From: a virus | IMG/VR virus record: IMGVR_UViG_3300036859_000864 | Location: 47,462-111,461 of that record | Length of the DNA: 64,000 bases | Reading direction: 5' to 3' (one strand) | Shown: positions 15,628 through 60,546 of the stretch, piece after piece | Position numbering within the stretch: the stretch's first letter is position 1 | Layout: every line of letters begins with the position of its first letter | Notes under the pieces: generated by a model | The model's database searches: none | Told to the model about the DNA's origin: nothing | Seen by the model: only the letters and a program-made list of their open reading frames with translations | Program-made: the position numbers and the translations under genes

Positions 15628-15905
15628 ACTCCGACGTGAAGCTGATCAAGCACACCGCCGAGTGCGATCATCCAGACGACCCTTCGTTCCCTTTCAAGCT
15701 CCACCTGGTGATGCGTCCGCCGGAGTTCATGATCGTGACCTTCGTGATACTCTACGGCGGTACCGAAGAGGTGATCGCCCGCGGACGCTCGCTCGAGGCG
15801 CTTTCCGAATGGGCGGACGAGAACGGCCTCAAGGAGCACTCTCGCTTTTTACGATACACCATCACAAATGAGAACGACGCCGTCGTCGAGGAGAAGAAGA
15901 GATGA
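15624..15905 (+). CDS. hypothetical protein
   Basis: ATGA coupling, GC3-rich codons. Confidence 0.55.
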   Translation: MNSDVKLIKHTAECDHPDDPSFPFKLHLVMRPPEFMIVTFVILYGGTEEVIARGRSLEALSEWADENGLKEHSRFLRYTITNENDAVVEEKKR

Positions 15906-18706: not shown

Positions 18707-19127
18707 GCCCGACCACGACGATGGCCGGGAACTCTGTCGCCTTCAAGTTGTAGAGCGCGACGAAGCGGTGGGCCCCCTCGATGATGAAGGGCCCCTTCTC
18801 GTCGACGCCGATGATCAGCGGGTTGATCTCTCGAGATTCTTCGATCGCGCCAGAGAGCCGCTCGCTTCGCGCGAAGTCGTCGGCGGCGTAGAACACGGAT
18901 CTCGGGCCGCCGAAGTCGGACATCGGTACGACGCGCACACCGGGGAGCGTTTCCGACTCGGCCATGTACCCGTCGATCGAGCTGAGGTTCGGTACGTGAT
19001 CTCGAACCGTCAGGCCGCCGACGACGTCGCCGGCGACCGGGTACCGCGCGCTTGTGCTCGCGATCAGGCCCTCGAGCGACGAGTCGGCGAGCGCGAGTGG
19101 CGCCGCGCCGACCCTGCGGCTTTTGGG
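18699..19127 (-). CDS. ParB/Srx-like domain, probably expressed as a -1 frameshift extension of 19064..20422
   Basis: INPLII.....FIIEGAHRFVAL; frame stays open and coding-like (YPVAGDVVGGLTVRDHVPNLSSI) upstream of ATG 18965 with no ATG/GTG/TTG start. Confidence 0.6.
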   Translation of the reverse strand, partial: PKSRRVGAAPLALADSSLEGLIASTSARYPVAGDVVGGLTVRDHVPNLSSIDGYMAESETLPGVRVVPMSDFGGPRSVFYAADDFARSERLSGAIEESREINPLIIGVDEKGPFIIEGAHRFVALYNLKATEFPAIVVVGLE

Positions 19128-20422
19128 TGGCGACGACTCGACTCGTGCACGCCGGTACCGTTCCTAGCCGCTGCGACGCGCTCGGCGATCTCTCGGTCGC
19201 GGGCGCGTGTGAAGTTGCCTGTCCAGGCCGCCCAAGGGCGCCCCTGAGGCTTGAAGATGTCTACTTGCAACACCGAGTTGCCGGGCTCCCCGGGATGGTG
19301 GACGACCCAAGTTTCGGTCGATGCGTTCAACGTCTTGCTGGGAACGCCAACCCTCAATCGTCGCGCCTCCAAGCCGCCGTCGATGGTGAGCGTCGTCGGT
19401 CCGGAGGCGGGCGCGCCACGACGCGCTTCGCTCGCATGTGACGCAACGTCAGGCACGATTTTCACAGTGTACCCGCGTCCGGTCAGTTCGACTGCGATCT
19501 TGTCCGCTTTCTCGCGCGGGTACGATCGACGGTTCAGCCATCGGATCGGTTGGCCGGTGTCGACGTTGATGATCTTGAACAATGATCCTCTACGAGGCGC
19601 AGCGACCACACCTCGACGCGCTTCGCCGACGCCCCCGCCGCGCATCTCCTGTTTGATCTGCAAGAGCTCGTCCGCGAGCCAATCGCGCGTCTTCGGATCT
19701 TGCAAGGCGCCTTTGAAACCGATCCAAAACTCACGCACCGTCTCGCGTCCGCCTGTCGCCGTCCCGGGCCCGAAAACGCCCCCAGCCAGATCGAGGATGT
19801 CGTTATCGCCGAGGCCCCGCTCCGTGTCCCACACGAGCTGTTGAAGCATGTTTTTCGCGATCACCGTCGCGTCTGACTTCGTCTCGAGCGGGAGCATCTG
19901 AGACGGATCCGCGCGTTCTGCTTCGAGCATCTGCTCGCGGACCCAGTCCATGAAGTATCCGCCTTGGAGTTGATCGTTGGCGTACTGCTCACCGGCGGCT
20001 TCGGCGTTGGGGGCGTCGCCCGTCTCACGTGCGGTCGGAACTCTACGTTTGATCGGCACAGTCGACTCGCCGTAGTAGCGAAACGTCTTTCGCCCCCCAC
20101 CGATATCCACTTCGACGTTACGGTATCCGCGTTGGTCGCTATCGGACACAGAGACTACGGTAGCTTCTCCGGATTTGTCGTAGATGACGTCTCCGACGCG
20201 AAGATCATCCACGTAAATATGCTGATCTCGGCGGCGATCTCTCTTCGCGTTTTCTCGTGTTGTCTTTCGAGTCATCGTGCTCTCCTTCTCGTGTCCTTGG
20301 TAGCCGTGTGAGTAGGCCGCCCGTCCTTGCTTCTCGGCCTTCTGGCGTGCGCCGGGGCCGCAGTAAACCTTCCCGTGGGAGCCCCACTGGTAGCAACCGC
20401 GGCCTCTAGAGTGGACGGGCAT
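19064..20422 (-). CDS. modular multi-domain protein with Arg-rich linkers
   Basis: N-terminal YQWG..GK.Y.G..A..KA..QG module, SH3-like module and further small domains separated by TARE, VGEARRGVVAAPRR, ASEARR, VHESSRR. Confidence 0.75.
   Translation of the reverse strand: MPVHSRGRGCYQWGSHGKVYCGPGARQKAEKQGRAAYSHGYQGHEKESTMTRKTTRENAKRDRRRDQHIYVDDLRVGDVIYDKSGEATVVSVSDSDQRGYRNVEVDIGGGRKTFRYYGESTVPIKRRVPTARETGDAPNAEAAGEQYANDQLQGGYFMDWVREQMLEAERADPSQMLPLETKSDATVIAKNMLQQLVWDTERGLGDNDILDLAGGVFGPGTATGGRETVREFWIGFKGALQDPKTRDWLADELLQIKQEMRGGGVGEARRGVVAAPRRGSLFKIINVDTGQPIRWLNRRSYPREKADKIAVELTGRGYTVKIVPDVASHASEARRGAPASGPTTLTIDGGLEARRLRVGVPSKTLNASTETWVVHHPGEPGNSVLQVDIFKPQGRPWAAWTGNFTRARDREIAERVAAARNGTGVHESSRRHPKAAGSARRHSRSPTRRSRA
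19081..19127 (-). other. candidate -1 programmed ribosomal frameshift signal
   Basis: In-frame C_CCA_AAA heptamer (19127-19121), 6-nt spacer, 9-bp stem GGGUCGGCG/CGCCGACUC. Confidence 0.6.
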
Positions 20423-20426
20423 AGTC

Positions 20427-21563
20427 CTACCGTCTTCGTGTCGATCGTCGAGCGTTCGGATTGTGCGCGCTGCGCGTCGGGCGCGGTGCCTCGTCCATGC
20501 GCGCGCCTTTGATGCGCGAGCCGCGCGGGTAAAAACCCGCGTTCTTGCCGCGGGCGAGGTCGGTCTGCGCCCGCTCGATTGTCGGAGCCGTGATGTGCGA
20601 GATCACCCGACCGTCTGGGTTCACGACCTCGAACTGTTTCCCGTGCCCCGATTCGCGCGCTCTAGGAGGCGCCTGACGGCCGCCGGAGGGCACGAAACGA
20701 ACGACCCCCCGAACTCGCTCGGCCTCGGTCTTCGCGTCCCCGTAGCTCTTGAACGGGCCGGCGATGACGCGGTTGTGGTTGTCGAGGGCCTCGTAGTCTC
20801 GGACGGCATGGCGCCGAGGGGCTCCTCGCCGGGCTTCGGTGTCTCCAGGGAGGTACATGGCGTTCCGAGGAAGCTGGGCGATGATGCTGCGCGCACCAGG
20901 CCCCTGCGCGTGCCAGTAGCCTTCTTTTTGCCAGACGGTGGCCACGTAGTATCCGTTGTCCGGACACGGGAAGTAGATCCGCGTGTTGGCACCGGCGCCC
21001 GATACATGCGTGGCGCCGTCGACGGTGGCCGCATGCTCGATGAGATCTTGGAGCGTGCCGAAGTCAGAGACACGGTGAGTACGCGACGCTGAACGGCGCG
21101 GGGCTGCGACGACGCCACGGCGCCGACTCTCGCCCACGTGCGCGTCCAGAGGCGACCCGTAGATGAGTGTCTCACCGTCCTCGTCCGGATCGCCGACGTA
21201 CAGATCGAACTCGCCGTACTCGTGGGCGCCGTCTGTCAGCTTGGTCGCGTCCGGCTCGGGCCAGTCGCCGTCCCAAAAGCCGGCGCCGGCGCCGTTGCGC
21301 GTCAGCCAGAAGTCATGACCGGCTAGCTCGAGGTTGCCTCCGATGAGCTCTCCGAAACGCTCTTGGAAGGAAGCACAGTCGGCGATCATCTTGTCGCGTG
21401 TCGCGTCGTCGATGTCTCCGACGTCGTAGTTCTTGTCGAGCGGCTCGCCCCCCTGATCGTCCGAGTTGTCCGAGCTCGCCCAGAGGGCCGTTTCGAAGTA
21501 CGCGCGGGTGAAAGAATCCATGCGCTGGGGCGCACGGGCGGTGTGTCGTCTGCGAGCGGCCAT
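20427..21563 (-). CDS. modular multi-domain protein with Arg-rich linkers
   Basis: Acidic domain with AGHDFWLTRNGAGAGFWD motif (seen in phage hypotheticals), then small domains separated by VGESRRRGVVAAPRR, TEARRGAPRR, ARES, MDEAPR. Confidence 0.75.
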   Translation of the reverse strand: MAARRRHTARAPQRMDSFTRAYFETALWASSDNSDDQGGEPLDKNYDVGDIDDATRDKMIADCASFQERFGELIGGNLELAGHDFWLTRNGAGAGFWDGDWPEPDATKLTDGAHEYGEFDLYVGDPDEDGETLIYGSPLDAHVGESRRRGVVAAPRRSASRTHRVSDFGTLQDLIEHAATVDGATHVSGAGANTRIYFPCPDNGYYVATVWQKEGYWHAQGPGARSIIAQLPRNAMYLPGDTEARRGAPRRHAVRDYEALDNHNRVIAGPFKSYGDAKTEAERVRGVVRFVPSGGRQAPPRARESGHGKQFEVVNPDGRVISHITAPTIERAQTDLARGKNAGFYPRGSRIKGARMDEAPRPTRSAHNPNARRSTRRR

Positions 21564-22228
21564 TAGCGTCTCCTCTTGGAGGTTCTGAGCGCAGTTTTCC
21601 TACGCGCGATGCGCTTGCTTCGTTGCGCGTCGGTTTGGGTCAACCGATCGATGTACGACTTGGCGACGATGATCGCCTTCGTTTCAGTGCCGCCGTATCC
21701 GACCTGTTCGGCTTCGACGCCGGTAGCTCCGTTTTCGGATTCGTACGGGCTGTAGACGACGGCGGCGAAGTACCCCTTCTCGCCCTGATGGGGGCGTTCT
21801 TTGGGAGGTACTGGATCGTGATAGACCTCGAATTTGATACCCTTGTACTCACCCGTGTGTTGAAGCGATGCCTTCGGACCGAGCGCGCCGGTGACGAGCG
21901 TCGGAAGACTGGGGGCTTCCTCCTCTTCTTCGCTCATCAAACCGCGAACGAGCTCCTCGACATCTTGCTTGTCTTGGATGGCGGCGATCATGCGTCCGAG
22001 CTGGTCGAGTTCGTGCCACCCGATGCCCCCCAAAGGCTCGAAGCCCATGTCCTCGAGCTCCTCGCCGCCGGGCACGCTTGCGAGAAGTCGGAACACCGTC
22101 GTCGGGTAGTCGTTCGGACCGTGGTCGTAGTTCGGGAGCCACGACCTGAGCTCCGCGATCATGTCGGCGATCGGGGGGCGGGGTTTCGAGGTGTTCGCGT
22201 GCATTCTTCTTCGGGTTGCCATGGTCAT
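21563..22228 (-). CDS. two-domain protein with basic termini
   Basis: AAGGAGA RBS; start 22228 or 22222 (MATRRRMHAN...); basic C-tail. Confidence 0.65.
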   Translation of the reverse strand: MTMATRRRMHANTSKPRPPIADMIAELRSWLPNYDHGPNDYPTTVFRLLASVPGGEELEDMGFEPLGGIGWHELDQLGRMIAAIQDKQDVEELVRGLMSEEEEEAPSLPTLVTGALGPKASLQHTGEYKGIKFEVYHDPVPPKERPHQGEKGYFAAVVYSPYESENGATGVEAEQVGYGGTETKAIIVAKSYIDRLTQTDAQRSKRIARRKTALRTSKRRR

Positions 22229-23766
22229 CGTCTCCTTCGCGGGCTGCGCCGCTCTTGCATTCCGTCTTCGGGCCTCGAGCTCCACACGAGTTCACCGTCG
22301 CGTGTGATTACCGTCACGTAGTCCCCTTCGAACGTCGGGTCTCGGAGCAACTTCTGCGCGGCGCGGATTGCTGCTTGCTCATCGTTCAACGAGAACGTTT
22401 CGCCACCACCGCCGCCCAAACCTCCGACGATGGTTCCGTCGCTGTACGCCCCCTGCACGACGTAGTCGCCATCGTCGACATGGGCGTTCGAATCTTTCTT
22501 ACCCCAAATGGAGGCGTAACCGCTCGTTGAGCTCGCGATCTCATCGTTGCGGTCTTTCGGCCACCAGTCGATGCCCTGAGCGGCTTCCTTGACCGTTTCG
22601 ATCGGCAACTCCATATCGTGCGCTACGGCACGGATGGCGGAGTCGGGGCTGACGTGTTCTTCGGTGGTCGGTACCCTACCCCCGAGATCGGTCAGCTCGT
22701 AGCCGTCCTTCTCGAGGTCGGCCTCTACGCCGGACTCGGTTCGCTCGCTCTCCAGATCACCGTTGACGGCCACGGCGTCTCCGAACGAAGCGACACCGAC
22801 GAGCGAATCTGAATCGAAGCCATCTCGAGCGGCGTCGTCCGCGTGCTGATCGCCGATCGTGCTCCACGTCTGCGCAGCGCCGATGTCGGCCATTTCCTCG
22901 ACTTTCTTTTCGAGGTTGCTTCGGATGTCGCTGTACCCTAGGACGTCGTCCTTGAACGATTCGTCTTCGTCTGCGAGGTACTCGCGGAGTGTTGCGGTCG
23001 CGCCGCTCGACCACTTCACTTCGTGATCGGGAAGATCTCCAGACCAGCCGGAAGGCCCCTCGTCGACACCAGTGCCGTAGTCCATGAGCGCGCTCGCGAT
23101 CGTGAGCGCGCGCTGAGTTGGTGTGAGATCCTCGAGCTGGTTGTGATCCATCCCGATGAAGCTCATGACGTTCGAGATGTTCTCCTTGTTCGTGAGATCG
23201 TCGAGATCGTAGTACGCCTCGCGGGTCCAAAACGGGAAGCCGGCTTCGGCCGCTTCCGTGTCGCCGACGTACTCACGCACCGGTTGGATCTTGAAGAGCT
23301 CGAGGGCTCTGCCGTCGCTCTTGGCGATGGTGCCGCCGTGCGCACCGGGATCCATGTCGCCGTCGATCTGCTCCCACATCGGCATGTCCGGGATCTGAAT
23401 TTCCAGCTTCCCGGGGATGTCAGGGAAGCCCGGCAGGCTCGGTTGGTGGCGGCTCCTCACCCTCCGTCCTTTTCCACGCTCGTGCATCTCCCCGCCGCTC
23501 GCCGCACCCTCGTCCGGGCGCGAGAACCGCTCGAGGTGCCCCGCGTCGGCCGTGAACGGATCGGCCGTCCTCGAGCGCCCGCGTCCCGTCGAGCCCGGAG
23601 GCCAGATGCGGATCGAGCGCGCCTTGGCCTCGTAGCTGTACGGCGTGCCGCTTCCGGGGCGCAGCATGGTCGGCCGTTGATCCATCGGTGCCTGGTAGTA
23701 GAGCGGGCCTCCCGTGCGCGCGTACGCGAGAACTTCAGGCCACGACTTGAAGGCTACAAGGTTCAT
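22225..23766 (-). CDS. modular acidic multi-domain protein
   Basis: 513 aa; domains bounded by EMHERGKGRR and GMQERRSPRRRR. Confidence 0.75.
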   Translation of the reverse strand: MNLVAFKSWPEVLAYARTGGPLYYQAPMDQRPTMLRPGSGTPYSYEAKARSIRIWPPGSTGRGRSRTADPFTADAGHLERFSRPDEGAASGGEMHERGKGRRVRSRHQPSLPGFPDIPGKLEIQIPDMPMWEQIDGDMDPGAHGGTIAKSDGRALELFKIQPVREYVGDTEAAEAGFPFWTREAYYDLDDLTNKENISNVMSFIGMDHNQLEDLTPTQRALTIASALMDYGTGVDEGPSGWSGDLPDHEVKWSSGATATLREYLADEDESFKDDVLGYSDIRSNLEKKVEEMADIGAAQTWSTIGDQHADDAARDGFDSDSLVGVASFGDAVAVNGDLESERTESGVEADLEKDGYELTDLGGRVPTTEEHVSPDSAIRAVAHDMELPIETVKEAAQGIDWWPKDRNDEIASSTSGYASIWGKKDSNAHVDDGDYVVQGAYSDGTIVGGLGGGGGETFSLNDEQAAIRAAQKLLRDPTFEGDYVTVITRDGELVWSSRPEDGMQERRSPRRRR

Positions 23767-24491
23767 CAGTTGTCTCTCCAGTAAACGAACCCGGACGGGG
23801 TCGTGTAGTAGTTGCTGTCGTAGCGCGCGAGGAAGTGCTCGGCGCCGTCTGTGTCGACGGCCTCCTCGGCCGCCGCTTCGATGTCGATGCCGGCGATCTC
23901 GATGGCCTTCGCGGCGGCCTCGTCACCGTAGATCTCTTCGAGATACTCGAGCGGGTCGTTGAGACGCTCTTCGGCGATCTTCGAGGCGACGTCGTCGATG
24001 TAGTCCTCGGGGTCGGGCATCTCGCCCTCGCTGTCTTCCTCGGGGATGCTGTCGAGGTAGCGCTCCGCCGTCTGCCAGAATTGACGGCTGGACATCTCGC
24101 GAAGATCGTCCTCCGCCATACTCTGCACGTCAGACTTGAGCTCTCGACGCAAGCGATCCTTGTCGATGTGGTTCTCGATGAAGTCCTTGTTGAAGTTCCC
24201 GGGCTCTTCTTCGAGATCTTGCGTGACAACTTCGATGGCCAGCTCGTACATCTTGTCGTGACTTTCCACGACATGCCATTCCTTGCCGCCCGTACGATCG
24301 CCTCGAAAATAAATTCGGTAGGCGGTGCCGTCGAAATCTCCGAAACCTGTAAGCTGAGTGCTCTCTTCGATTTTCAAATCGTACGGGTCGATGTCAAGGT
24401 GCTTCGCCACCTCGATGAGCACCGCGTCTTGATCGTCGAAGTCGACCTTGCGCGGGCGCCGCTTCGCTGCCTTTTTCTTTCGGGTAGCCAT
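23766..24491 (-). CDS. highly acidic protein (possible DNA mimic/anti-restriction) with basic N-terminal tag
   Basis: MATRKKKAAKRRPRK followed by D/E-rich body ending DG.EHFLARYD...GFVYWR. Confidence 0.6.
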   Translation of the reverse strand: MATRKKKAAKRRPRKVDFDDQDAVLIEVAKHLDIDPYDLKIEESTQLTGFGDFDGTAYRIYFRGDRTGGKEWHVVESHDKMYELAIEVVTQDLEEEPGNFNKDFIENHIDKDRLRRELKSDVQSMAEDDLREMSSRQFWQTAERYLDSIPEEDSEGEMPDPEDYIDDVASKIAEERLNDPLEYLEEIYGDEAAAKAIEIAGIDIEAAAEEAVDTDGAEHFLARYDSNYYTTPSGFVYWRDN

Positions 24492-24492
24492 C

Positions 24493-24921
24493 TCAGTCGT
24501 CCTCCTCTTCGAACTCGTCTTCGTCTTCATCGTCGTCATCGTCATCCTCATCGTCGTCGTCGACGTCCTCGAACTCAGATTCGATTTCCTTCCACGCCGC
24601 TTCGGCTTTCGTCTTGCCGTCGAATCCGGTGAACCAGTCGGCCTCAACGATGCCATCTTCACGTTCGCAGAGAATCACCACCGAGGTGTCATCGAGCAGA
24701 GCGCCCTCCGCGCCGGTGAGCTGATCCTTCTCCTCTTTCGCGATCTCGTTGATGCGATCGACGACGTCAGGAGTGATTTCTACGAAACCGTACCAGCCGT
24801 CACCTTCGGAGCCTTCCTCCCGATCGGCGCCGCCATCGAGCGTCAACTCGTAGACGTAGCTGTCGATGATTTTGATGAACTTGCCGGGCCCGTACGAACG
24901 AATTCCTGTTTTGATCGGCAT
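24493..24921 (-). CDS. acidic protein with poly-D/E tail
   Basis: TGATG coupling at 24921; GPGKF...DGWYG. Confidence 0.6.
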   Translation of the reverse strand: MPIKTGIRSYGPGKFIKIIDSYVYELTLDGGADREEGSEGDGWYGFVEITPDVVDRINEIAKEEKDQLTGAEGALLDDTSVVILCEREDGIVEADWFTGFDGKTKAEAAWKEIESEFEDVDDDDEDDDDDDEDEDEFEEEDD

Positions 24922-25304
24922 CACTTTCTCCATTCGATCCAAGCTCGATCGATCTCGAGCGGTAACTGTTCGGTGGATACGCCCACCGTCTTGAGAACTC
25001 CCCGTAGAACGCCCCACTCTTGATCGATGATTTCGTCAAGATACTCGTCTTCCGAGTCGCTCTCGATAGCCCCTACGCCGGCGCTCGTGAGCGTCTGAGG
25101 GACTCCTTCGATGGCAACCTCGGCCTCGGCGTAGACGCGCATGAAGTCGAACTCATCGCGCTCGTAGGCGGCAAGGCCGTCCTCGTTCAAGTACGAGGTG
25201 TCCGGGCTCGAGTCCGGCGTGAAGATCACGCGCACGGCGCGCAGCTCCGCACGTGGCCTGCGTGAGGCAGCCTCGACGACGCGGCGTCGCGGGGGAGAGC
25301 TCAT
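24921..25304 (-). CDS. acidic protein with Arg-rich N-terminal tag
   Basis: MSSPPRRRVVEAASRRPR then acidic domain. Confidence 0.6.
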   Translation of the reverse strand: MSSPPRRRVVEAASRRPRAELRAVRVIFTPDSSPDTSYLNEDGLAAYERDEFDFMRVYAEAEVAIEGVPQTLTSAGVGAIESDSEDEYLDEIIDQEWGVLRGVLKTVGVSTEQLPLEIDRAWIEWRK

Positions 25305-51134: not shown

Positions 51135-52379
51135 GTGCACACACACGTCGTTCAGGCCGGTGAGAGCCCCTCGTCGATTGCGATCAACTACGTGGGGTGC
51201 CCCAAATGCTCGCGGGATTTGATCGAAGCGAACCCGCACAAGCCTGCCGTGGTGCACCCGAACGGCTACATTTCCTTCAAAGACCTGCGTGAGGGCGAAA
51301 AGCTCAAGCTGCCCGGCAAGTGGTTTGACGGGAGTCTCGACTCTCGCCCGACCGCGTACTTCGCAGCACTGCCGTACCATGACGGGGTGACGCCTGGCAA
51401 ATTCGGAGTCGGCGCCCCCAACGTGCTCAACGACTACGCCGCGCTCGACGCCGCCGGCGTGAAAGTCGGGGCACTCGCCGCTTTGGGTGATCAAGCGTTC
51501 GCTGCCGCCGTGAACGGCGCTGCCGACGCCGTCGACGTGTCGGTGCGTGAGATAGGTGAGGGGACGACGACGCCTACGGTGTACGCCGCTCCGTACGCGC
51601 GAGATGCACGCACGGCTACGGCCAAGGCGCGGCAGTACAACGCCACGGTGCTCGATGCGGCTATCGCGGCCGGGGATGCTCAAGAAGCATTTCAAGCGCG
51701 CACAGAAATTCTGAAAAACCTCTCGAGCGCGCTCGGGTCTGCGCGTTTGGCGCTCCAAGCGTTCTACGGAGACGCGGGCGACGGGGGTGCGCCTCAGCCT
51801 GTAGCGCCGGCGCCTCAACCGACTCCGGAAATTCAGGTCGACATCGGCCCGGCTACGATCGATCCGACGCTCACATCGCCGGCAGTCGTCACCGCTGCGG
51901 CACAAGCTGCGGTTTCCGCTATGGGCGCGGACGCCAACTACTGCACGTCGGTCGCGCGACCCGGCAGTGCTGTCAACTCAGCAGTGCATGCTTTCAAAAC
52001 AGCCTGGAACGCGGCAAATCCGAACAATCCGGTCCCGATTGGCACCAGCACCTACGAGCAAGCGACGGCCGACGCGATCATGCGCGCGGTTGGACACGCG
52101 CCCGTCGCGTGCGGGGCGAGTGCTGTTCCGAGTGCATCGCCGGGCGCAACGCCTACCGCCCCCTCGCTCGTGGCGCCTGAACCGAGCAAAGGGATCGGTG
52201 TCGCCGGTATCTTGGGTCTCGGATTGCTCGGCGCCGGCGCTGTTGGGGGCGTGATCTACTACGCCACCAGCAAACCTGTCGCGCCTCGCCGACGAGTGCG
52301 ACGAGTCAGCCCCGGCCCTCGTCGACGACCCGTGCAGCGCGACACCATCGGCCCTTGGAAGAAAGACCCCAACTCGTGA
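51135..52379 (+). CDS. LysM-like, tail-anchored membrane protein
   Basis: HVVQAGESPSSIA...LIEANP...L.EGEKLKLP; C-terminal TM + Arg-rich tail. Confidence 0.7.
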   Translation: MHTHVVQAGESPSSIAINYVGCPKCSRDLIEANPHKPAVVHPNGYISFKDLREGEKLKLPGKWFDGSLDSRPTAYFAALPYHDGVTPGKFGVGAPNVLNDYAALDAAGVKVGALAALGDQAFAAAVNGAADAVDVSVREIGEGTTTPTVYAAPYARDARTATAKARQYNATVLDAAIAAGDAQEAFQARTEILKNLSSALGSARLALQAFYGDAGDGGAPQPVAPAPQPTPEIQVDIGPATIDPTLTSPAVVTAAAQAAVSAMGADANYCTSVARPGSAVNSAVHAFKTAWNAANPNNPVPIGTSTYEQATADAIMRAVGHAPVACGASAVPSASPGATPTAPSLVAPEPSKGIGVAGILGLGLLGAGAVGGVIYYATSKPVAPRRRVRRVSPGPRRRPVQRDTIGPWKKDPNS

Positions 52380-53032
52380 TCGAAAAACCTGTAGAGGGCG
52401 TGCAGACAGACGCGAGACCGCATCCGCCTGGCGGCAAGGGCGCGCGATTGTCTTTACAAGAGGTGGCCGATCGCTCGTGGAAGGCGCGCATGAGCCCGCG
52501 TCTTCGTTCGTGGGTCACGAAAGTGCTCGACAAGGCCGGCGTGTCGAACGGAGGCCGTCGACAGAAGGCGCAGGCCATCCTCAAAGCTTTCCGAGAGAAG
52601 GTGCCTTACATCGCCGATCCGTTGATGGGCGAGTTCATGGCGACGCCCGACCAGGTGTTGTGCCTCGACGAGGGCGGTCTTTGCATCATCGGAGGAGACT
52701 GCGACGAGCACGCGATCACGCTCGCCGCTGCGATGATGACGATCGGCATCCCGGCCATGATCATCGGCGCCAGCTACCACGATCCGATCGATGTCCCGAC
52801 GCACGTGTACATGGCGTTCGAAGACGATCTCAAAGATTGGGTGCGCATGGACGGCACGACCAAACAGCATCCTGTCGGCCGCGTGTCTCCGAGCAGGAAA
52901 GAGTTCTGGGTAGAGCCCGGTGCGGCAGCGAAAGAGAACGGGAACGGCGACTTCGTAGGCATGAGCGGAGCTCCGGGAATGCTCGCCGCGCCTACGAGCG
53001 TGCTCGATCTGGTCTACCCGGGACTACGTTAG
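52376..53032 (+). CDS. transglutaminase-like cysteine protease (intact Cys-His-Asp triad)
   Basis: Y..DP...E....P; GDCDEH, THVY, WVRMDGT. Confidence 0.85.
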   Translation: MIEKPVEGVQTDARPHPPGGKGARLSLQEVADRSWKARMSPRLRSWVTKVLDKAGVSNGGRRQKAQAILKAFREKVPYIADPLMGEFMATPDQVLCLDEGGLCIIGGDCDEHAITLAAAMMTIGIPAMIIGASYHDPIDVPTHVYMAFEDDLKDWVRMDGTTKQHPVGRVSPSRKEFWVEPGAAAKENGNGDFVGMSGAPGMLAAPTSVLDLVYPGLR

Positions 53033-53279
53033 TAATACGTACGTAGTCTGTTCGTAATACATCGGACGACTATTTTCGATCTCGAACGTGCTCTGATTTG
53101 CCGGCAGAGGGCTCTTACACCGACCGCACGTAACCTGCCGTTCCGATTGGCGTTTCAATCGAACGTGAGATCGACGGGCGTAGAGAGATCGTTCCTGTAA
53201 CCACGACTGCGGCTCACCGCAATGCGTGTATTCCTGGACGCATCGATCTCTTGTTGCGATCTTAGAGGGGCACAGTGAC

Positions 53280-54845
53280 ATGGGCCTTTACGACACCCGA
53301 CTGGCTGAGCTCAGCGAACCGCGCCGGCGAAGGCGTGTCGCGCAGACCCACCCGTCCTTTTCCCTGTCACCTCCGAGACGCAACCCGATGTTGCGCCCGA
53401 TCGCCGAGCGGCGATCCGCTCCGATCGTAGTCGTTCGCAAAACCGAGGAAGAAAACATGGCCACTGCCCGCCGACGCTCCAAGAAAAAGACCGCAGCCCC
53501 CAAGCGCCGCCGGCGCGCGCGCAAAGCCGCGTCACCGAAGCGTCATCGACGCGCACGGAAGGTTGCGGCCCCCAAGCGTCGTCGTCGGGCCAAGAAGGCG
53601 GCTGCCGTCACTCGTCGGCGTCGTCGGCGCACCGTGCGCGTGGAAGCAAAGAGGTCTCGTCGTCGTCGTCGTTCGGCTGCTCCCGCGGCCCCCAAGCGTC
53701 GTCGTCGGCGTCGGGTGGCGCGTGAGGCGTGGAAGGGCGACTCGGCCGGTCACGCGAAGGCCGCCAAGAAGGGTCATCGTCGTCGTCGGGCGGCGCGGAA
53801 GACCACGAAGCGTCGTCGTCGGCGGAGCAAGGCTCGCGAGACTACGTACGCAGCAGCTCCTCGGCGTCGTCGGCGTCGGAGTTCCAGGCGGCGATCGTCT
53901 CACGTGATGGAGGCGAGTCGTCCCCGTCGTCGTCGGCACCGCATGCACGCCTCGAGTGGTGGCGGCATGGGCGTCGGAGCGATGTTGCTCGGAATCGGTA
54001 CGGCTGGCGTCGGGTTCGTGATCGCCGACGGTCTCGACCGTCTGCTCGCCACGTACAACCCGTCCGACGCCAAGAAGCCCACGGACAGGTTCACGAGCGA
54101 CGGCACCGGCATGCTCGCGAACACGCTCAACGTCGCGGCGATGCCGAACTGGAAGCGCGTCGTGGCGGGCGTCGGTCTCACGGCGGCACCTGCCGTCGGA
54201 TCGATGTTCGTCAAGAACACCTACGTACGCGGCGCGCTCGAGGGCCTTGCTCTCGGCGCCGGCATCTCGGTGTTCAAGCTGGTCTGGAGCAACGTGCTCA
54301 TGCCGATGCTCATCGGTAAGGACACGTCGGCCCCGGCGCTCCAGAAGAGTTACATCGCGCGGCTCTACCCGACGGAGGTCGCCTCTTCGCTCAACAAGAA
54401 GCAGGCGATGTCCAACGTCTCGAGCTCCGGCTCGGGTGCGCTCTCCGGCGCTCCCGAGCAACAGACCGGCGTCGGATCTCCCGACGTGGGCCCGTTCGCA
54501 CTCGCCGGCGACTCACCGTACCCCGACGCCTCTCAGGCACTCAGGTCTGGCGTGAGCGACGACCCCGGGTACCCCAGCACCTCGCAAGCGCTCCGAGCCG
54601 GAGTGAGCGGCGACTCGCCGTACCCCAGCGCAGGCCAGGCGCTCCACGCCGGAGTCAGCGCGCCGGCGCCGACGCCGACGGGCGGCTCCGATCCGAACTG
54701 GAATCCGGGTCCTCCTCCGGGTTCCGGTCCGGGGCCGCAGGCGAAGCCGCACTCCTCTTGCGGATGCGTCGGCGAGAACAACGCCTTCCTCGGCTTCATC
54801 GGTGAAGCAGTCGAAGAGACGCCCTTCTTGGGTGCCGTTGCGTGA
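53280..54845 (+). CDS. protamine-like Arg-rich core/membrane protein
   Basis: ~165-aa R/K/A/S tract after a second RBS+ATG at 53457, three hydrophobic helices, C-terminal 17-aa repeats; directly upstream of the capsid candidate. Confidence 0.75.
   Translation: MGLYDTRLAELSEPRRRRRVAQTHPSFSLSPPRRNPMLRPIAERRSAPIVVVRKTEEENMATARRRSKKKTAAPKRRRRARKAASPKRHRRARKVAAPKRRRRAKKAAAVTRRRRRRTVRVEAKRSRRRRRSAAPAAPKRRRRRRVAREAWKGDSAGHAKAAKKGHRRRRAARKTTKRRRRRSKARETTYAAAPRRRRRRSSRRRSSHVMEASRPRRRRHRMHASSGGGMGVGAMLLGIGTAGVGFVIADGLDRLLATYNPSDAKKPTDRFTSDGTGMLANTLNVAAMPNWKRVVAGVGLTAAPAVGSMFVKNTYVRGALEGLALGAGISVFKLVWSNVLMPMLIGKDTSAPALQKSYIARLYPTEVASSLNKKQAMSNVSSSGSGALSGAPEQQTGVGSPDVGPFALAGDSPYPDASQALRSGVSDDPGYPSTSQALRAGVSGDSPYPSAGQALHAGVSAPAPTPTGGSDPNWNPGPPPGSGPGPQAKPHSSCGCVGENNAFLGFIGEAVEETPFLGAVA
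54507..54659 (+). repeat. 3 x 51-bp coding tandem repeat (xD(S/P)(P/G)YPxxxQALxxGVS)
   Basis: Units at 54507, 54558, 54609. Confidence 0.85.
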
Positions 54846-54990: not shown

Positions 54991-56316
54991 ATGGGAGCCA
55001 GGAACATCGTCGGTCGGCAGATTCACAAGTTCGGTGACGCGCAGGACAAGGTCAAGCGCATGCAATTCGGTCTCGGAGTGGATCCGAACAGCGGAGCGCT
55101 CGCGGCAGACGCCTCGGGCAAGTGCCTCCGTTGCTCCTTCGGGAACATCCCCGTGATCGAGGAGGTCGTCTGGACGATCCCGCTCCCCCTCACGGCCACC
55201 GAGGCGCTCGCAACGCTCGGTGACACGGTGAACCTTCTCTCGGGCAGCTCCAGCGTGCCCGGCGTCGCGTCGATCGACTCGACGTTCCTCATCAACGGCA
55301 TTCTCCAGACGGACATTCTGGCGCAGGGCATCGGCGTGCACGTGTTCTGCGAGCCGATGAGCTTCTCGACCATCGGCAACGCCTTCGTGGCGCCCGAGAC
55401 GACGGTGGCTCCTCCTCCGTCGCCCGACGTGTTCACCAACAACGACGTGACCTCGCGCGCGATGAGCACGCAGGTCGACGCGACCGCGTCGAACTTCAGC
55501 CCGGCCGTGTTCGAGTTCGGTGCCGACGTTTGGCGCGCGGGCTGGAACTTCATCAACGCCTACCAGTTTCAGTGGAAGACCTCGCAGCGCGAGCTCGTCC
55601 TCAACGAGCTGGCGGCGGACGTCTCGTACTTCGGCTCCTTCGCGGACGCCGAGGCGAGCGGCACGAGCGAAGTCGCCATCATCGAGTTCGTCGCGACGGT
55701 CAACGCGATCTACCGGTCGAAGGGCTCGAATACGATCTTCCTGCCCGTCAACTTCCGGCGCGTGGGTTCCGTCAACAGCACCAGCGCGACGGTCAACGTC
55801 GGCGTGTTCCACCCGACGCGCGATTTCGATCTCGCGCCGGTCACCTGGGGCGGTCTTCGGTGGCAGGGGTACGGCTGCCGCGGGCAGATGTACCGGCCGA
55901 TCGAGAGCCCGTGCTTCCTCGAGCGCGGTATCCCCATCGGGATGCTCTTCGTCGTGCAGGACGCCGTGCACCAGGCGCTCATGCTCCAGGCCGTCACCAT
56001 CAACAACGAGCCCCTCGGCGTGAACGTCAGCGTGGACGAGAACTTCTCGGACGCCTCGGCCGTCATCCCGACGCCGGCGACCCCCGGTACGCCCACGGCG
56101 GGCGCCATCGTGGTCGGCGGCAACAACACGATGCTGGAGCAGACGCTCGATGCGACTCCGGTGCTCGTGACGCAGTCGGTGAACACCTCTCGGCAGGTGT
56201 TCAAGGGCGGCATCCTGAAACTCGCGATCAAGATCAAGGGCTGGGAGATGCCCGGCGGCTGGAAGGACTACTGCAAGACCAACCTGCCGCAGATCATGTC
56301 GAACTCGGCTCCCTGA
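54991..56316 (+). CDS. putative major capsid protein (jelly-roll type)
   Basis: AGGAG RBS, strongly C/G-ending codons, beta-strand-rich, followed by a terminator; no HK97-type context. Confidence 0.55.
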   Translation: MGARNIVGRQIHKFGDAQDKVKRMQFGLGVDPNSGALAADASGKCLRCSFGNIPVIEEVVWTIPLPLTATEALATLGDTVNLLSGSSSVPGVASIDSTFLINGILQTDILAQGIGVHVFCEPMSFSTIGNAFVAPETTVAPPPSPDVFTNNDVTSRAMSTQVDATASNFSPAVFEFGADVWRAGWNFINAYQFQWKTSQRELVLNELAADVSYFGSFADAEASGTSEVAIIEFVATVNAIYRSKGSNTIFLPVNFRRVGSVNSTSATVNVGVFHPTRDFDLAPVTWGGLRWQGYGCRGQMYRPIESPCFLERGIPIGMLFVVQDAVHQALMLQAVTINNEPLGVNVSVDENFSDASAVIPTPATPGTPTAGAIVVGGNNTMLEQTLDATPVLVTQSVNTSRQVFKGGILKLAIKIKGWEMPGGWKDYCKTNLPQIMSNSAP

Positions 56317-56354: not shown

Positions 56355-56400
56355 CAGGCGGCGTGACGGAAGACAACGTCGCGCCGCCTGTCCTGTTTCT
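56355..56400 (+). terminator. intrinsic terminator/attenuator after capsid gene
   Basis: 14-bp stem CAGGCGGCGTGACG/CGTCGCGCCGCCTG followed by TCCTGTTTCT. Confidence 0.6.
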
Positions 56401-56423: not shown

Positions 56424-57029
56424 ATGCAGCCTCGTGATCACGAAATTCGGAATCTTGCGCTCTACGCCCCCAAGATCGCCTTCGGCATGATGGCCGGCGT
56501 CCCGCGCGTGCCGTTCATTGGGGACATCCCGATCCAGTTCTCCTCGTCGACGGTCAACGCGCCGCCGGTCGTGCAGAACTTCCAGAACAACCTGACGCAG
56601 CACACGATCGTCGAGCGCATCGCGTACAACTTGGGGCAGCAAAATAGCTTCCCCGGGAGCCCGTTCCAGAGCCTCTACTTCAACCAGCTCAAGCAGAGCG
56701 GCCAGATCGGCGTTGGCGTGCAGCTCGCCGTGTACGGCGGCCCCAAGTACAACGTCAACGACACGTTCACGGATCTCGGCACTCTCGCCGATGTGTTCGC
56801 GGTCGCGTGGCCCATGGGATGGCCGCTCGAGAAGCAGAGCAACGTGAAGGTGAGCGCGATTCTTCAACAGACGCCGGTGAGTGTGCCCTTCAACGTTACT
56901 CTCACCTTCCTCGGCTGGCAGTTTCTCTCGAAGGAGCTGGACGACATGAGCGACACCGAAGCGCGAGACCGATTGCGCAAACTCGGTATCGAGACCCCCG
57001 ACCTCAAGGTACTTCTCTCGAACCCCTGA
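56424..57029 (+). CDS. putative second/minor capsid protein (single jelly-roll-like)
   Basis: Beta-rich; P.GW.L...S.V.V...V.LTFLG pattern echoes the capsid C-terminus. Confidence 0.45.
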   Translation: MQPRDHEIRNLALYAPKIAFGMMAGVPRVPFIGDIPIQFSSSTVNAPPVVQNFQNNLTQHTIVERIAYNLGQQNSFPGSPFQSLYFNQLKQSGQIGVGVQLAVYGGPKYNVNDTFTDLGTLADVFAVAWPMGWPLEKQSNVKVSAILQQTPVSVPFNVTLTFLGWQFLSKELDDMSDTEARDRLRKLGIETPDLKVLLSNP

Positions 57030-57031
57030 AA

Positions 57032-57925
57032 ATGGACGAGCGCAGCGCGAAGGTGATCAGGCTCCAGACACACCCCGATGGTGTGGGGGCCTCGATCCGC
57101 TCGACGCTGTGCAACGGCCGTGACGAGATTGTCACCAACGGGCCGAACCAAGAATTCGGCTTCCTCGGAAGCGACCCGTACAACACGAACGCCTACACGG
57201 GTCTGGTCGTCCCGTCGGTTGCCAGCTCGGCGATCGGAAACGCTCGCTACCTCTTCGTGCTCGCGCGTCAGAGTTTCAGCACGGGCGAGCAGAGCTCGGA
57301 CCGACGCGGCGTCCGTCTGGTCGGCATTCGACAGTACGCCGAACTCATCGCGCGTATCCCCGCACGCACCGCCCCGCTCGCTTCAGGTACGGGATCACCA
57401 GCCGGAAGCACCGTCACGTTTCGCAAGGAGATCACGAGCCCCCTCTGGCATCCGCAAGACGGGAACATCTCCTGGCACGTGATGATCATCAACAAGGTGC
57501 AGCGTGATACGCGCAACCCCGCGAACACGGACGGGGTCATCTATCAGGACGCGCTGTCTCCCGCGCTGCTCTACCAAACGCTCGGGCCGTACGTTCCTCC
57601 GAACGCTGGACGTCCTTGGGGCACTCCGATTGGAGCGAGCCTCGGCAACATCCACGAGCTTCGGTACCCCTGGCGCACGACGCTGAGTGAGCTGACGCTC
57701 GATATTTCGATCCCGGTCCCGTGTGACGTCGTGCTCTTCGCGAGCGTTCGTCAGAACGACCCCGCGACCAATCCTGTGCTTTCGGACGCTGTGACCACGA
57801 CGCAACAGTTCGAGGCGCTCTCACCGGAAGATCAGTTCATCGTCGCGTACCCGACGTTCGCGCAATACGGCGCCATCGCCGGCTCGCTCGTCTTCGATCA
57901 GAACCTCGGGGAGGACGTACCGTGA
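57032..57925 (+). CDS. putative structural protein (vertex/penton candidate)
   Basis: Beta-rich 297-aa ORF in the structural operon. Confidence 0.45.
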   Translation: MDERSAKVIRLQTHPDGVGASIRSTLCNGRDEIVTNGPNQEFGFLGSDPYNTNAYTGLVVPSVASSAIGNARYLFVLARQSFSTGEQSSDRRGVRLVGIRQYAELIARIPARTAPLASGTGSPAGSTVTFRKEITSPLWHPQDGNISWHVMIINKVQRDTRNPANTDGVIYQDALSPALLYQTLGPYVPPNAGRPWGTPIGASLGNIHELRYPWRTTLSELTLDISIPVPCDVVLFASVRQNDPATNPVLSDAVTTTQQFEALSPEDQFIVAYPTFAQYGAIAGSLVFDQNLGEDVP

Positions 57926-58155: not shown

Positions 58156-58370
58156 CGCGAACTACCGCAGCGCTTCTCGGTCTCGTGGTAGGCGGTATCG
58201 CCGGTGAGGTCGTGGGTCGTCATTTCGAGAAGGGCCACGGAAAAGAGGCCGAGCTCGAGGGCGCGATCGGCGGCGGCGTTCTCGGCGCGGCGCTGGGTTC
58301 GGTTCTTTTCGCCACGGCGGCATCTTCTCCTCAACAGCAGGCGCAAGTCTCGCAAGCGAGTTTCCCATGA
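58152..58370 (+). CDS. small glycine-zipper membrane protein
   Basis: GAGG RBS; two GxxxG helices. Confidence 0.6.
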   Translation: MTRTTAALLGLVVGGIAGEVVGRHFEKGHGKEAELEGAIGGGVLGAALGSVLFATAASSPQQQAQVSQASFP

Positions 58371-59080
58371 CGCCGGCACAAGCGTACGGACACCCCGACT
58401 ACGTTCTGGACGTTCCCGTTCAAGGACCGACCGATCAAGGCATGCGCGAACTGGCCTGCCTGTTCGTCAAGACCGTTTTACCGACACCGCAGCAGGCCGC
58501 GTGCGTCGATTGTAAAGGACCGATTCCAATGTGGGCAAAAACGAACACAGGCGTCAGTGAAAAGATCTCGTTCGGCGGCGTCGGCGCAGTCGGCTTCGCG
58601 CTCGGAGCTCCCGGAGATCCCGACGCTTGGACGCAGCTCACGCCAGCGCAGCAGACGTGGGTCGTAACTTCGATCCGCACGCTCGACTCGAAGATCCGAG
58701 AGCAGACGAAGACCACGTGCCCTGGCATGCAATCGCCGAGCATCACGGGCATGGCCGGTTGCTTTCAGAACTGGTTCAACAGCGCGAAACTCGGTCTGAC
58801 GAAGCGCGACGGATCCCCGGTCGTGCTGCGCACCGACGGCGTCTTCGATCAAGACACGCTCGATGCGCTGCGCACCGTCACTTCGCTCGACGCGAAGAAC
58901 TACCCGACGCCGTTTCCGGGTACCGAGGCGGCCGGCATTCAGCCCGTCAAGAAGCTTTCCACCGGAGCCATGGTCGGCATCGCTGCCGCCGGCGCAACGG
59001 TTCTCGGTGGGATCGCCTACGTCGCCATGCATGGCAAGAGCAAACGCAAGGGCCGCACGACCCGCAGAAAGAGGAAGTGA
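58367..59080 (+). CDS. tail-anchored protein with peptidoglycan-binding-like domain
   Basis: FQ.WFN...LRTDGVFDQDTLDAL; LSTGAMVG TM + basic tail. Confidence 0.6.
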   Translation: MTPAQAYGHPDYVLDVPVQGPTDQGMRELACLFVKTVLPTPQQAACVDCKGPIPMWAKTNTGVSEKISFGGVGAVGFALGAPGDPDAWTQLTPAQQTWVVTSIRTLDSKIREQTKTTCPGMQSPSITGMAGCFQNWFNSAKLGLTKRDGSPVVLRTDGVFDQDTLDALRTVTSLDAKNYPTPFPGTEAAGIQPVKKLSTGAMVGIAAAGATVLGGIAYVAMHGKSKRKGRTTRRKRK

Positions 59081-60546
59081 TGTCGTTCTTCAGAGTCAAG
59101 CCGGGACAATCTCCGGCCATGGTCGCACGCGAGCTCGGCACGTCGGTGTCGGCGCTCATCGCCGCCAACTCGCACAAGCCCACTGCGGTCGTCGCAGGCA
59201 AGCGCACGTTCAAAACACTGCGCTACAACGAGCTCTTGCACAAGCCCGGTGTGGGCGTTGGAGCACTCGGTGAGGACGGCACGCTCGGTGCGATCACGCC
59301 GGCTGATCCGGCGGCGCCTCACGCGCTGATCGCATCAGGTAGCAGCGGTCCTGACGTTGCGCTCTGGCAGAAGATCATCGGCGTCAAGGTCGATGGCTCC
59401 TTCGGATCTGGAACCGCAGCAGCAACGAAAACGTGGCAGAGCGCACATGGGCTCAACAACGACGGCGTCGTCGGTCCCAACACGTGGGCGAAAGCTCTCG
59501 GCAACGCCTCGAGCGCGCCGGTATCGGTGTCGACTCCAGTCGCAGCCGGAGCGAGCCTCGCGATGGCGGCGGGAGCCGCATACACGGCGCTCAACCAGGA
59601 TCCGAACTACTGCACGAGCGTCGCTCGTGCAGGCACGCCGGTGAACACGGCCGTCCACAACTTCAAAGCGGCCTGGAACGCGGCCTACCCCGGACAGACG
59701 GTACCTATCGGGACTGGAAAGTACGAGCCGTCGGTGTCCGCCGCGCTCTCGTCGGCGCTCGGCGGAGTGGCCGTGCCTGCGGGATGCGGCGCCGGAGCGG
59801 CTCCACAACCCTCCCCCGCGGCGGCTCCGTCGGCACCGGCTCCCATGCCGGCACCGAGTGTCACGCCGGTGCCTACACCGGCACCCACGGCCTCGAGCGC
59901 CTACAGCAGCGCGCAGATCGCTGCGGCGACGGCCATGAACTCAGCGCTCGCGGCGCACGGCTACAAGCAGGCCGATCAGGGGCTCTACATGGCGTTCCAG
60001 CGCGCGATGGGGCTCACGGCCGACGGGTACCCCGGAACCGGCACGATGGGGAAGCTCAGGGCCGTCCTCACCTCCGCCGGCATTCCGATGGCCTCGGTAC
60101 CCGTGTACCCGTGGCGCGCGGGAGCCTACGACGGCGTGAACGCACCGACGGCCGCCTCTTGGACAGGCGCCGCCGCAACGCCCGCGCCGCCTCCCCCACC
60201 GTCCGCCCCGCCCTCCGCGCCTCCCGGCGGCGGCGCGGCTCCGGCACCCTCCGCACCGTCTGCTCCTTCCGCCGGCGGAGGCACGCTCCCCGTAGCTCCG
60301 ACGCCGGGCGGCATCACACCCCCGGAGGCGAAGAAGGGCCTGAGCACCGGTGCGATCGTGGTCGGCGCGATCGGCGCAGCGGCGCTCATCGGGTTGGGCG
60401 CCATGGCGTTGACGGGCAAGAAGACCGGCCGCCGCGGAGCTCGAGGAGCGCGTGGCCCGTCTCGACGCAAGTCGAGCAAGCACAAGCCGGCGCACCACGC
60501 GCATCCCGCACATCCGAAGCGCAAGAGGAAGTCGAAGAAGAAGTAG
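59080..60546 (+). CDS. LysM-like + peptidoglycan-binding domain, tail-anchored protein
   Basis: LysM-like start; GS.G.DV..WQ....VDG.FG.GT..A.K.WQ..HGL..DG.VGP.TW (PG_binding_1); second FQ..MGL.ADG.PG.GT; TM + basic tail. Confidence 0.8.
   Translation: MSFFRVKPGQSPAMVARELGTSVSALIAANSHKPTAVVAGKRTFKTLRYNELLHKPGVGVGALGEDGTLGAITPADPAAPHALIASGSSGPDVALWQKIIGVKVDGSFGSGTAAATKTWQSAHGLNNDGVVGPNTWAKALGNASSAPVSVSTPVAAGASLAMAAGAAYTALNQDPNYCTSVARAGTPVNTAVHNFKAAWNAAYPGQTVPIGTGKYEPSVSAALSSALGGVAVPAGCGAGAAPQPSPAAAPSAPAPMPAPSVTPVPTPAPTASSAYSSAQIAAATAMNSALAAHGYKQADQGLYMAFQRAMGLTADGYPGTGTMGKLRAVLTSAGIPMASVPVYPWRAGAYDGVNAPTAASWTGAAATPAPPPPPSAPPSAPPGGGAAPAPSAPSAPSAGGGTLPVAPTPGGITPPEAKKGLSTGAIVVGAIGAAALIGLGAMALTGKKTGRRGARGARGPSRRKSSKHKPAHHAHPAHPKRKRKSKKK

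Follow-up and report, generated by a model that had tools for sequence, protein, structure and literature searches.

We analysed a 64,000-nucleotide stretch of the IMG/VR virus record IMGVR_UViG_3300036859_000864 (positions 47,462 to 111,461 of that record; hereafter, the window) and describe here one of its genes, the product of which joins a long, arginine-rich, protamine-like arm to a three-helix membrane anchor. The reading that we favour, and to which we give somewhat better than an even chance, is that this arm–anchor protein is a membrane-anchored, genome-binding virion protein of a large tailless bacterial virus. In support of it we count an arm of which 48% is Arg and Lys, at least 270 relatives, fusion of arm and anchor in 20 of 20 loci, a fixed gene order, an invariant methionine preceded by a Shine–Dalgarno (SD)-like sequence, and scans in which the tailed-phage families for terminase, portal-type proteins and prohead protease were not detected. 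The family is conserved and undescribed, and it occurs in uncultivated soil and wetland bacterial viruses with candidate jelly-roll-like capsid genes. Features of the gene and its closest neighbours are collected in Table 1.

Counted from Met 53457 (the 462-aa form, which also sets the numbering of the hydropathy segments below), the arm comprises 62 Arg, 33 Ala, 19 Lys, 13 Ser, 8 Thr, 7 Pro, 6 His, 6 Val, 6 Gly, 4 Glu and 3 Met residues, with one Trp, one Asp and one Tyr. A preliminary description of this gene had stated that the roughly 165 residues after Met 53457 are almost all R/K/A/S/T/P/H/V and that four Glu (in VEA, REA, RET and MEA) and one Asp are the only acidic residues of the tract. 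Both statements held on counting: 91% of the 170 residues belong to that alphabet, and the acidic residues are E63 (VRVEAK), E90 (AREAW), D95, E128 (ARETT) and E152 (VMEAS), which leave blocks of about 62, 26, 37, 23 and 18 aa. The arm is built of Arg runs parted by short V/A/T/M(+Glu) spacers, such as VRVEAKRS, xVMEA[PK]RRRR and ARETxYAAAPRRRR, and it carries a signature, W-[KR]-G-x4-H-A-x-A-A-[KR]-K-G-[HW]-RRR, that even the most distant members of the family retain. A KGG stress-protein repeat (Pfam PF10685) was considered for this signature and set aside, as no profile match was found in the genome at E ≤ 10. The basic tract is neither a chance nor a non-coding feature, because every one of the 20 related loci keeps it as an open frame continuous with the anchor. 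At the DNA level, a 36-nt tandem repeat (12 aa, AAPKRRRRARKx) lies within the arm at 53486–53584, and CGT makes up 30 of the 62 Arg codons of the arm versus 1 of 16 in the neighbouring 441-aa gene. Contigs from three soil or wetland runs gave only short pieces of low depth; a possible in-frame replacement inside the arm (53509–53561) was seen in one such contig with a short side and is too weak to use.

The arm is followed by three hydrophobic segments (residues 171–193, 234–253 and 263–288 by hydropathy). An AlphaFold2 (AF2) model of the anchor, built on 85 sequences and numbered according to the protein called in the window's own record (P0001), places helices at residues 3–29, 62–80 and 85–116, with predicted local distance difference test (pLDDT) scores of 86–95, and about 90 for helix 3–29. 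Downstream lie three 17-aa repeats, GDSPYPDASQALRSGVS and two variants, with 11–13 of 17 residues identical between pairs; in the relatives, the repeat consensus is DVGPFALxGDSPYPxAxQALR (alignment A2). The three helices and the three repeats had likewise been proposed in the preliminary description and were both recovered here. After the repeats, AF2 predicts a disordered tail. The C-terminal motif ends every open reading frame (ORF) from 497 to 1209 aa, on linkers of widely differing length, and the anchor itself is very conserved in alignment A2. A Foldseek search of BFVD with the anchor model returned nothing below E 0.24. As a separate observation, the C-terminal part of four relatives (L013, L015, L017 and L019) is expanded to 500–700 aa. 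It contains poly-Pro runs, stretches rich in Ala and an additional helical domain that is conserved (…HRWGLRGVG…ALPHIRRE…), and the end motif CGC...LGFVGDE is kept.

Searches with residues 165–462 (the anchor and C-terminal part) returned at least 270 metagenomic proteins at E ≤ 0.01. The best 120 of these have E values of 1e-185 to 2e-75 and lie on contigs of up to 117 kb; none of the 120 carries a domain above the Pfam cut-off (one sub-threshold match was judged spurious) or an informative name. Called lengths of the relatives are bimodal, at about 265–320 aa and about 500–630 aa. The short relatives are gene-caller truncations; in the window's own record, the protein was called from a Met after the arm (P0001, 292 aa). 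Twenty loci of the family were read at the DNA level: 19 IMG/VR loci and one contig of a metagenome-assembled genome. Bins of metagenome-assembled genomes carry the names Kofleriaceae and Binatia, a possible lead to the host. In every one of the 20 loci, including the distant L021 and L022 (26–30% identity), arm and anchor form one uninterrupted frame. Arm length ranges from 136 to 281 aa and net charge from +52 to +97. A recurring arm unit, R-x-R-E-(3–5 small or hydrophobic residues)-E-A-[P/R]-RRR, is tandemly duplicated in some genomes, with four RRTREAPVTTEARRR copies in L016 and three RETMTVQARRRPKK copies in L015.

Known families gave no match to this protein. Pfam and PHROG scans assigned no family to the window protein or to its long relatives, and relaxing the Pfam threshold to E 0.1–1, with adenoviral core families among the profiles, still gave none for the window protein or for two long relatives. 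A profile search of PDB sequences with the protein gave chance matches only (E 0.28), the protein atlas returned only unnamed viral clusters, and tblastn against 50,697 GenBank phage records found no match for the anchor or for the 441-aa neighbour. Our literature search found no paper on a virus group encoding an arm–anchor protein.

The frame that holds the gene is open from 53226 to 54845 (+, window coordinates), and we considered where translation begins. The GTG at 53226 was rejected as a start: G+C content at third codon positions (GC3) is 0.56 in 53226–53279 versus 0.71 in 53280–53456, and the segment before 53280 is not conserved in the relatives. Sequence evidence instead places the true start at ATG 53280, because the MGLYD motif that begins there is conserved; window protein and relatives share MGLYDDRLAxLSExRR (alignment A2 and locus ORFs). 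In most relatives this motif is followed by a globular N-terminal domain of about 65 aa, QSLLFDRxAGWTxSKAKAWAKSHGY...DQYIRIRQFDPKG...GIRAVVAREE (alignment A2). The window protein has lost this domain, and so have a few relatives (P0004/L004, L006 and L023). A word-based search with this domain found only 7 short fragments, all of the same family. In the protein atlas its nearest clusters are viral proteins of about 70 aa labelled Preplasmiviricota, which is a lead only.

Inside the gene, Met 53457 is invariant in the 20 sequences of alignment A2, and GAGGA, AAGGAG or AGGAAA lies 5–10 nt upstream of it in every locus examined, the distant L021 and L022 included. These SD-like sequences sit in an A-rich stretch that is unusual given the GC-rich genomes. 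Because the Met is invariant and always preceded by an SD-like sequence, a second, nested product beginning exactly at the arm is likely, and this short form is probably more abundant than the long one. The long form also appears to be translated, because leader and N-terminal domain are conserved at the protein level and contain no stops. In-frame nested products are familiar among phage assembly genes, for example lambda C/Nu3. The preliminary description had assigned a ribosome-binding site to each of the two ATGs. In the window this holds: SD-like purine-rich sequences precede both (AGAGGGG at 53264–70 and GAGGA at 53445–49), but the upstream one is not conserved across the relatives. Directly before the first ATG, a conserved CGTGAC occurs in L004, L006–L008, L010, L011 and L013 (the window has AGTGAC within 53270–53279), and this may be a transcription-start or other regulatory element.

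Table 1 Features of the arm–anchor gene and its closest neighbours (window coordinates).
Feature	Position	Strand	Basis or remark
Full gene	53280..54845	+	521 aa + stop: leader, basic arm, three-helix anchor, repeats, C-terminal motif
N-terminal leader	53280..53456	+	MGLYD motif and vestige of the ~65-aa globular domain; alignment A2, locus ORFs, GC3 0.71
Internal ribosome-binding site GAGGA and ATG 53457	53445..53459	+	Likely start of the shorter, nested 462-aa product
Protamine-like basic arm	53457..53966	+	170 aa, net charge about +76; composition, conserved motifs, Glu context, 36-nt repeat
Anchor helix 1, Gly-rich transmembrane helix	53973..54053	+	Hydropathy; AF2 helix 3–29, pLDDT about 90
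Anchor helices 2 and 3, hairpin with K/R-containing tight turn	54150..54314	+	AF2 62–80 and 85–116; hydropathy
Three 17-aa repeats, GDSPYPxAxQALRxGVS	54507..54659	+	Each a predicted short helix (AF2); conserved in relatives
C-terminal module: PGPPPGxGPGPQ, CGC, FLGFxG, acidic end	54696..54842	+	Alignment A2, locus ORFs
Transglutaminase-like (papain-fold) enzyme, upstream neighbour	52355..53032	+	Pfam Transglut_core 1.1e-6; candidate maturation protease or cross-linker
441-aa jelly-roll-like capsid candidate, downstream neighbour	54991..56316	+	GC3 0.92; AF2 and VIA; BFVD; terminator 56355–56390

The gene occupies a fixed place in what appears to be a structural module, in the order RadC-like JAB protein, 626-aa protein, LysM–transmembrane (TM) protein, transglutaminase-like protein, arm–anchor gene, 441-aa protein, 201-aa protein and ~300-aa protein. 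The transglutaminase-like gene is syntenic in 18 loci and probably encodes an active papain-fold enzyme, the Cys–His–Asp triad of which is invariant across 15 sequences. The 441-aa protein is 67–86% identical in most of the 18 loci compared. Its AF2 model (pLDDT 66.6) has jelly-roll or beta-sandwich proteins as best neighbours, with Z scores of 5–6.4 (capsid proteins of HCIV-1, HHIV-2, PBCV-1 and EhV-201); Foldseek with this model gave no significant match, and the non-significant BFVD list is dominated by jelly-roll capsid proteins. The model is thus suggestive of a jelly-roll-like capsid protein. Downstream of the 441-aa gene is a strong terminator; the interval between this gene and the arm–anchor gene has none, and the two genes are probably co-transcribed. 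GC3 of the arm–anchor gene is 0.76 overall, 0.64 in the CGN-dominated arm and 0.82–0.88 in the anchor and C-terminal part; the last value is like that of the adjoining capsid-candidate genes (0.86–0.92), an expression signal that supports a structural role.

Three further membrane proteins of the module (51135–52379, 58367–59080 and ~59080–60546, all +) end in a TM helix and then a basic tail. All strongly basic segments are therefore on one predicted cytoplasmic membrane face, which fits a single DNA-facing membrane side. Ahead of the TM helix, these three proteins carry PEPSKG or KKLSTGA-like motifs that recall C-terminal sorting signals, and the proteins have the N-out type I topology that is preferred by rhomboid substrates. 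Elsewhere in the module, a 372-aa ORF (56807–57925, +) overlaps the 201-aa gene. Because similarity to relatives begins just past the stop of the 201-aa gene, the gene within this ORF probably starts at an ATG near 57029 and encodes about 298 aa.

The window is the second half of a 111,461-bp record that carries direct terminal repeats and that CheckV rates as 100% complete. Among 109 ORFs scanned are replication genes of phage type (a family A polymerase and a VapE-type primase-helicase, helicases of the Dda-like and SNF2 kinds, a Dam methylase, a dCMP deaminase, a sigma-70 factor and an integrase). Further families are a rhomboid protease and peptidoglycan-binding proteins. A terminase was searched for in the genome and not found, and portal and HK97 capsid families are absent from the matches listed for the 109 ORFs. 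Neither Peptidase S77 (T4/phiKZ-type) nor S78 (HK97-type) prohead proteases gave a match at E ≤ 1 in the complete genome, and Pox_A32 and FtsK profiles were negative against it. A Walker-A scan (GRTGSGKT) did reveal a 326-aa HerA-type ATPase at genome positions 14703–15680 (−), which matches Pfam DUF87 (3.8e-7), phrog_2666 ‘terminase large subunit’ (2.5e-20) and HerA in the PDB (3.5e-11), and the idea that this genome lacks any packaging ATPase was set aside. Of 5 related complete genomes, only 3 have a detectable copy, in two of them within a frame of ~670–700 aa. The enzyme is therefore no more than a candidate for packaging, with an accessory HerA of the defence type as the other possibility.

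The rhomboid intramembrane serine protease (9635–10204, −; Pfam E 2.5e-22, GC3 0.87) recurs in 4 of 5 complete genomes of relatives, and the literature searched contained no report of a phage rhomboid. We considered whether it could cleave helix 1 and so free the arm. Rhomboid active sites face the outer side and favour N-out substrates; given this sidedness and an arm predicted to lie inside, such cleavage is unlikely.

On the reading that we favour, the N-terminal arm would lie on the cytoplasmic (DNA) side of the membrane by the positive-inside rule, where it would bind the viral genome non-specifically, neutralise its charge and compact the DNA, and the three-helix anchor would fix the resulting nucleoprotein to a virus-specific membrane. 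The C-terminal part, with its repeats and linker, would stand on the opposite face and end in a docking motif for another virion component. A minor long form would be made from ATG 53280 and an abundant short form from the SD-preceded ATG 53457. The V/A/T/M(+Glu) spacers are possibly protease sites, and the protein is assumed to serve as a largely intact tether. As a plausibility estimate, half of the ~223,000 negative charges of the genome would be balanced by about 1,500 copies carrying +76 each. The preliminary description had pictured a precursor that tethers condensed DNA to an inner membrane; the fusion of a basic arm to a three-helix anchor in the structural module agrees with the tether, but the Glu residues at which a precursor would be cut are only partly conserved, and the membrane is best called a putative inner membrane of the virion.

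Several points weigh against the reading of a membrane-anchored genome binder. It is from the charge alone that DNA binding by the arm is deduced. If the viral membrane formed by PRD1-like vesicle pinching, its cytoplasmic face would end up on the outside and not on the side of the packaged DNA, so that the arm would face the genome only with wrapping, the route proposed for PM2 (PMC6356626), with open sheets or with budding. The presence of a HerA/FtsK-type ATPase in the genome means that condensation need not drive encapsidation. Last, the capsid assignment of the 441-aa neighbour comes from a mediocre model (pLDDT 66.6) with fold scores of Z ≤ 6.4.

The spacers bear on a different use of the arm, as a precursor that a virus protease would cut after Glu at [A/V/T]-x-E / A/S/T, releasing peptides the size of protamines, much as adenain processes pVII and pre-mu. 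The context of the Glu residues is far from random. Among 114 Glu in 14 arms, 88 have A/S/T at +1 (shuffle mean 34.8), 83 have A/V/T at −2 (shuffle mean 32.8) and 68 have both, versus 9.4 ± 3.1 and a maximum of 25 in 1000 shuffles; the sequences are related, so that the test is descriptive and overstates independence. An A-R-E motif also stands at the junction of the N-terminal domain and the arm (alignment A2), similar Glu-plus-Arg tags occur on several proteins of the operon at 18699–25304 (−), and the transglutaminase-like neighbour, with its invariant triad and synteny, is the obvious candidate enzyme. The motif further resembles the experimentally defined sites of the prohead protease gp245 of the giant phage SPN3US, which cleaves after A-X-E (P3–P1) with Val at P4 and Ser at P1′ (PMC10052503). 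Set against this, a transglutaminase-like enzyme may serve instead to cross-link proteins or may have the cell wall as its target, and no S77 or S78 protease was detected in the genome. The positions themselves, the conservation of which had been named in advance as a test, are only partly kept: among 20 long relatives the four Glu of the window protein are conserved in 11, 12, 19 and 13, so that one is nearly invariant. The number of [AVT]-x-E-[AST] sites per arm ranges from 1 to 10. In L009 and L023, which have one site each, Glu is replaced by Ala or His within retained V/A/P spacers, and Glu-free spacers such as VHAVAVAAP are kept; processing into 25–60-aa peptides is therefore no family-wide requirement. 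Judged from these alignments, the conserved element is a short non-basic spacer in which Glu is frequent yet dispensable, because of the 11–13/20 conservation at three positions, the range of site numbers and the Glu-free spacers of L009 and L023. Cleavage into protamine-sized peptides at Glu is thus possible and not universal, and as an account of what the protein is for we regard it as unlikely. As a side observation, several proteins of the operon just mentioned begin or end with Arg-rich tags bearing arm-like Glu motifs (AKETMTMATRRR, GMQERRSPRRRR, ARMDEAPRP...RRR and GESRRRGVVAAPRR); core-targeting or cleavage tags are possible roles for these.

The same basic arm and anchor could also belong to a protein outside the virion that ties either the host nucleoid or viral DNA under replication to the cell membrane. 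Such a tether might provide a site of assembly or replication, serve to partition genomes, or compact the host's DNA as the virus takes over. The positive-inside rule does give the arm a cytoplasmic location at the cell membrane; an integrase is encoded and the virus may be temperate; and presence of the protein in particles is something that we infer. The fixed place of the gene within the structural module, its probable co-transcription with the capsid candidate, a codon bias like that of capsid genes, and a conserved C-terminal docking motif on long variable linkers, which suits a structural bridge, argue the other way and make a non-virion tether very unlikely in our judgement. We think it more improbable again that the arm does not bind the genome at all and acts as a scaffold or electrostatic glue to acidic lipids or the inner capsid face, or as a cationic lysis or entry peptide. 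Arg-rich segments do bind anionic phospholipids and can remodel membranes, and a membrane arranged as in PRD1 vesicles has its cytoplasmic face towards the capsid and not towards the DNA; but the charge carried by arms of this length far exceeds what lipid or shell binding would need and matches nucleic-acid condensers, the duplication of modules within arms points to selection for more charge, and the gene is not among the lysis genes. A genome-binding tether of the virion thus remains the reading that we favour. A more far-reaching reading, which we hold to be decidedly unlikely in its entirety, would be a lineage of 60–125-kb tailless bacterial viruses with a chromatin-like core like those of adenoviruses and giant viruses, in which a membrane-anchored protamine precursor with two nested forms is matured at [A/V/T]-x-Glu sites by the papain-fold neighbour, the Arg-plus-Glu tags on other proteins (operon 18699–25304) direct cargo to the DNA core, and condensation of the genome on a membrane rather than a terminase-type motor drives encapsidation.

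Bacterial viruses are thought to pack naked DNA by a motor, and protein-condensed cores are regarded as a trait of eukaryotic viruses (adenoviruses, baculoviruses and giant viruses); to our knowledge, a membrane-anchored protamine-like design has not been described for phages. The preliminary description had drawn an analogy with adenovirus pVII and mu. At the level of a parts list the analogy holds: pVII and pre-mu (pX) are Arg-rich genome-condensing polypeptides encoded in the late or structural block of a dsDNA virus with a jelly-roll capsid, alongside a papain-like-fold cysteine enzyme, and the window virus has an Arg-rich protein, for which condensation is predicted, a jelly-roll-like capsid candidate and a transglutaminase-like enzyme that is not adenain. 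A sequence relationship, in contrast, was not found in the Pfam scans. Adenovirus core precursors are cut into smaller basic peptides at adenain sites of the form (M/I/L)XGX-G, which are not Glu-based, and the core proteins are soluble and lack a membrane anchor, whereas the window protein is anchored. Baculovirus P6.9 and VP15 of white spot syndrome virus differ in being small (<15 kDa) free basic proteins, whereas the tract described here is always fused to a membrane part of at least ~300 aa (20 of 20 loci). Arg-rich arms of 20–60 residues on jelly-roll capsid proteins and H1-like tails (AlgP, Hc1) belong to a capsid or a soluble nucleoid protein. They share with the arm low-complexity A/P/K/R tracts (AAPKRRRR units) and non-specific neutralisation of nucleic acid, but the arms of this family are much longer and sit on a polytopic membrane protein.

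The enriched but only partly conserved Glu motif of the arm recalls the substrates of T4-like and giant-phage prohead proteases, which have several sites per internal head protein, with Glu at P1, a small P3 residue and either Ser or Ala at P1′; the propeptide or tag logic of proteins packed with DNA would be a further likeness. These substrates come from tailed viruses with an HK97-fold capsid and an S77-type serine protease, neither of which was detected in the window virus. A precedent for the reading that we favour is phage PM2, which is tailless with an internal membrane. In the model proposed for it, a patch of virus-specific membrane makes contact with the DNA, and genome and membrane area are enclosed together, in place of DNA being pumped into an empty procapsid; the PRD1-type membrane, by comparison, arises by vesicle formation into the cytoplasm (PMC6356626). 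PM2 has a 10-kb genome, no homology to it was detected, and the same review (PMC6356626) describes no protamine-like membrane protein, the terms ‘condens’, ‘DNA-binding’ and ‘basic protein’ being absent from its text. The ascovirus P64 family comprises large (>50 kDa) virion proteins in which a repetitive Arg-rich domain condenses genomic DNA experimentally, in viruses with genomes of about 100–200 kb (PMC6163548). Large size, a repetitive Arg-rich domain and genome size are shared with the window protein and its virus; P64 differs in lacking a membrane anchor, in the C-terminal position of its basic domain and in its insect virus, and no homology was detected. The arm–anchor protein is plausibly a membrane-anchored, bacterial-virus form of a viral genome-condensing basic core protein. 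If so, chromatinised, membrane-tethered cores exist in the prokaryotic virosphere, the protein is a candidate for how tailless membrane viruses handle genomes ten times those of PRD1 or PM2, and the family bears on how core proteins and maturation proteases arose in the realm of jelly-roll viruses.

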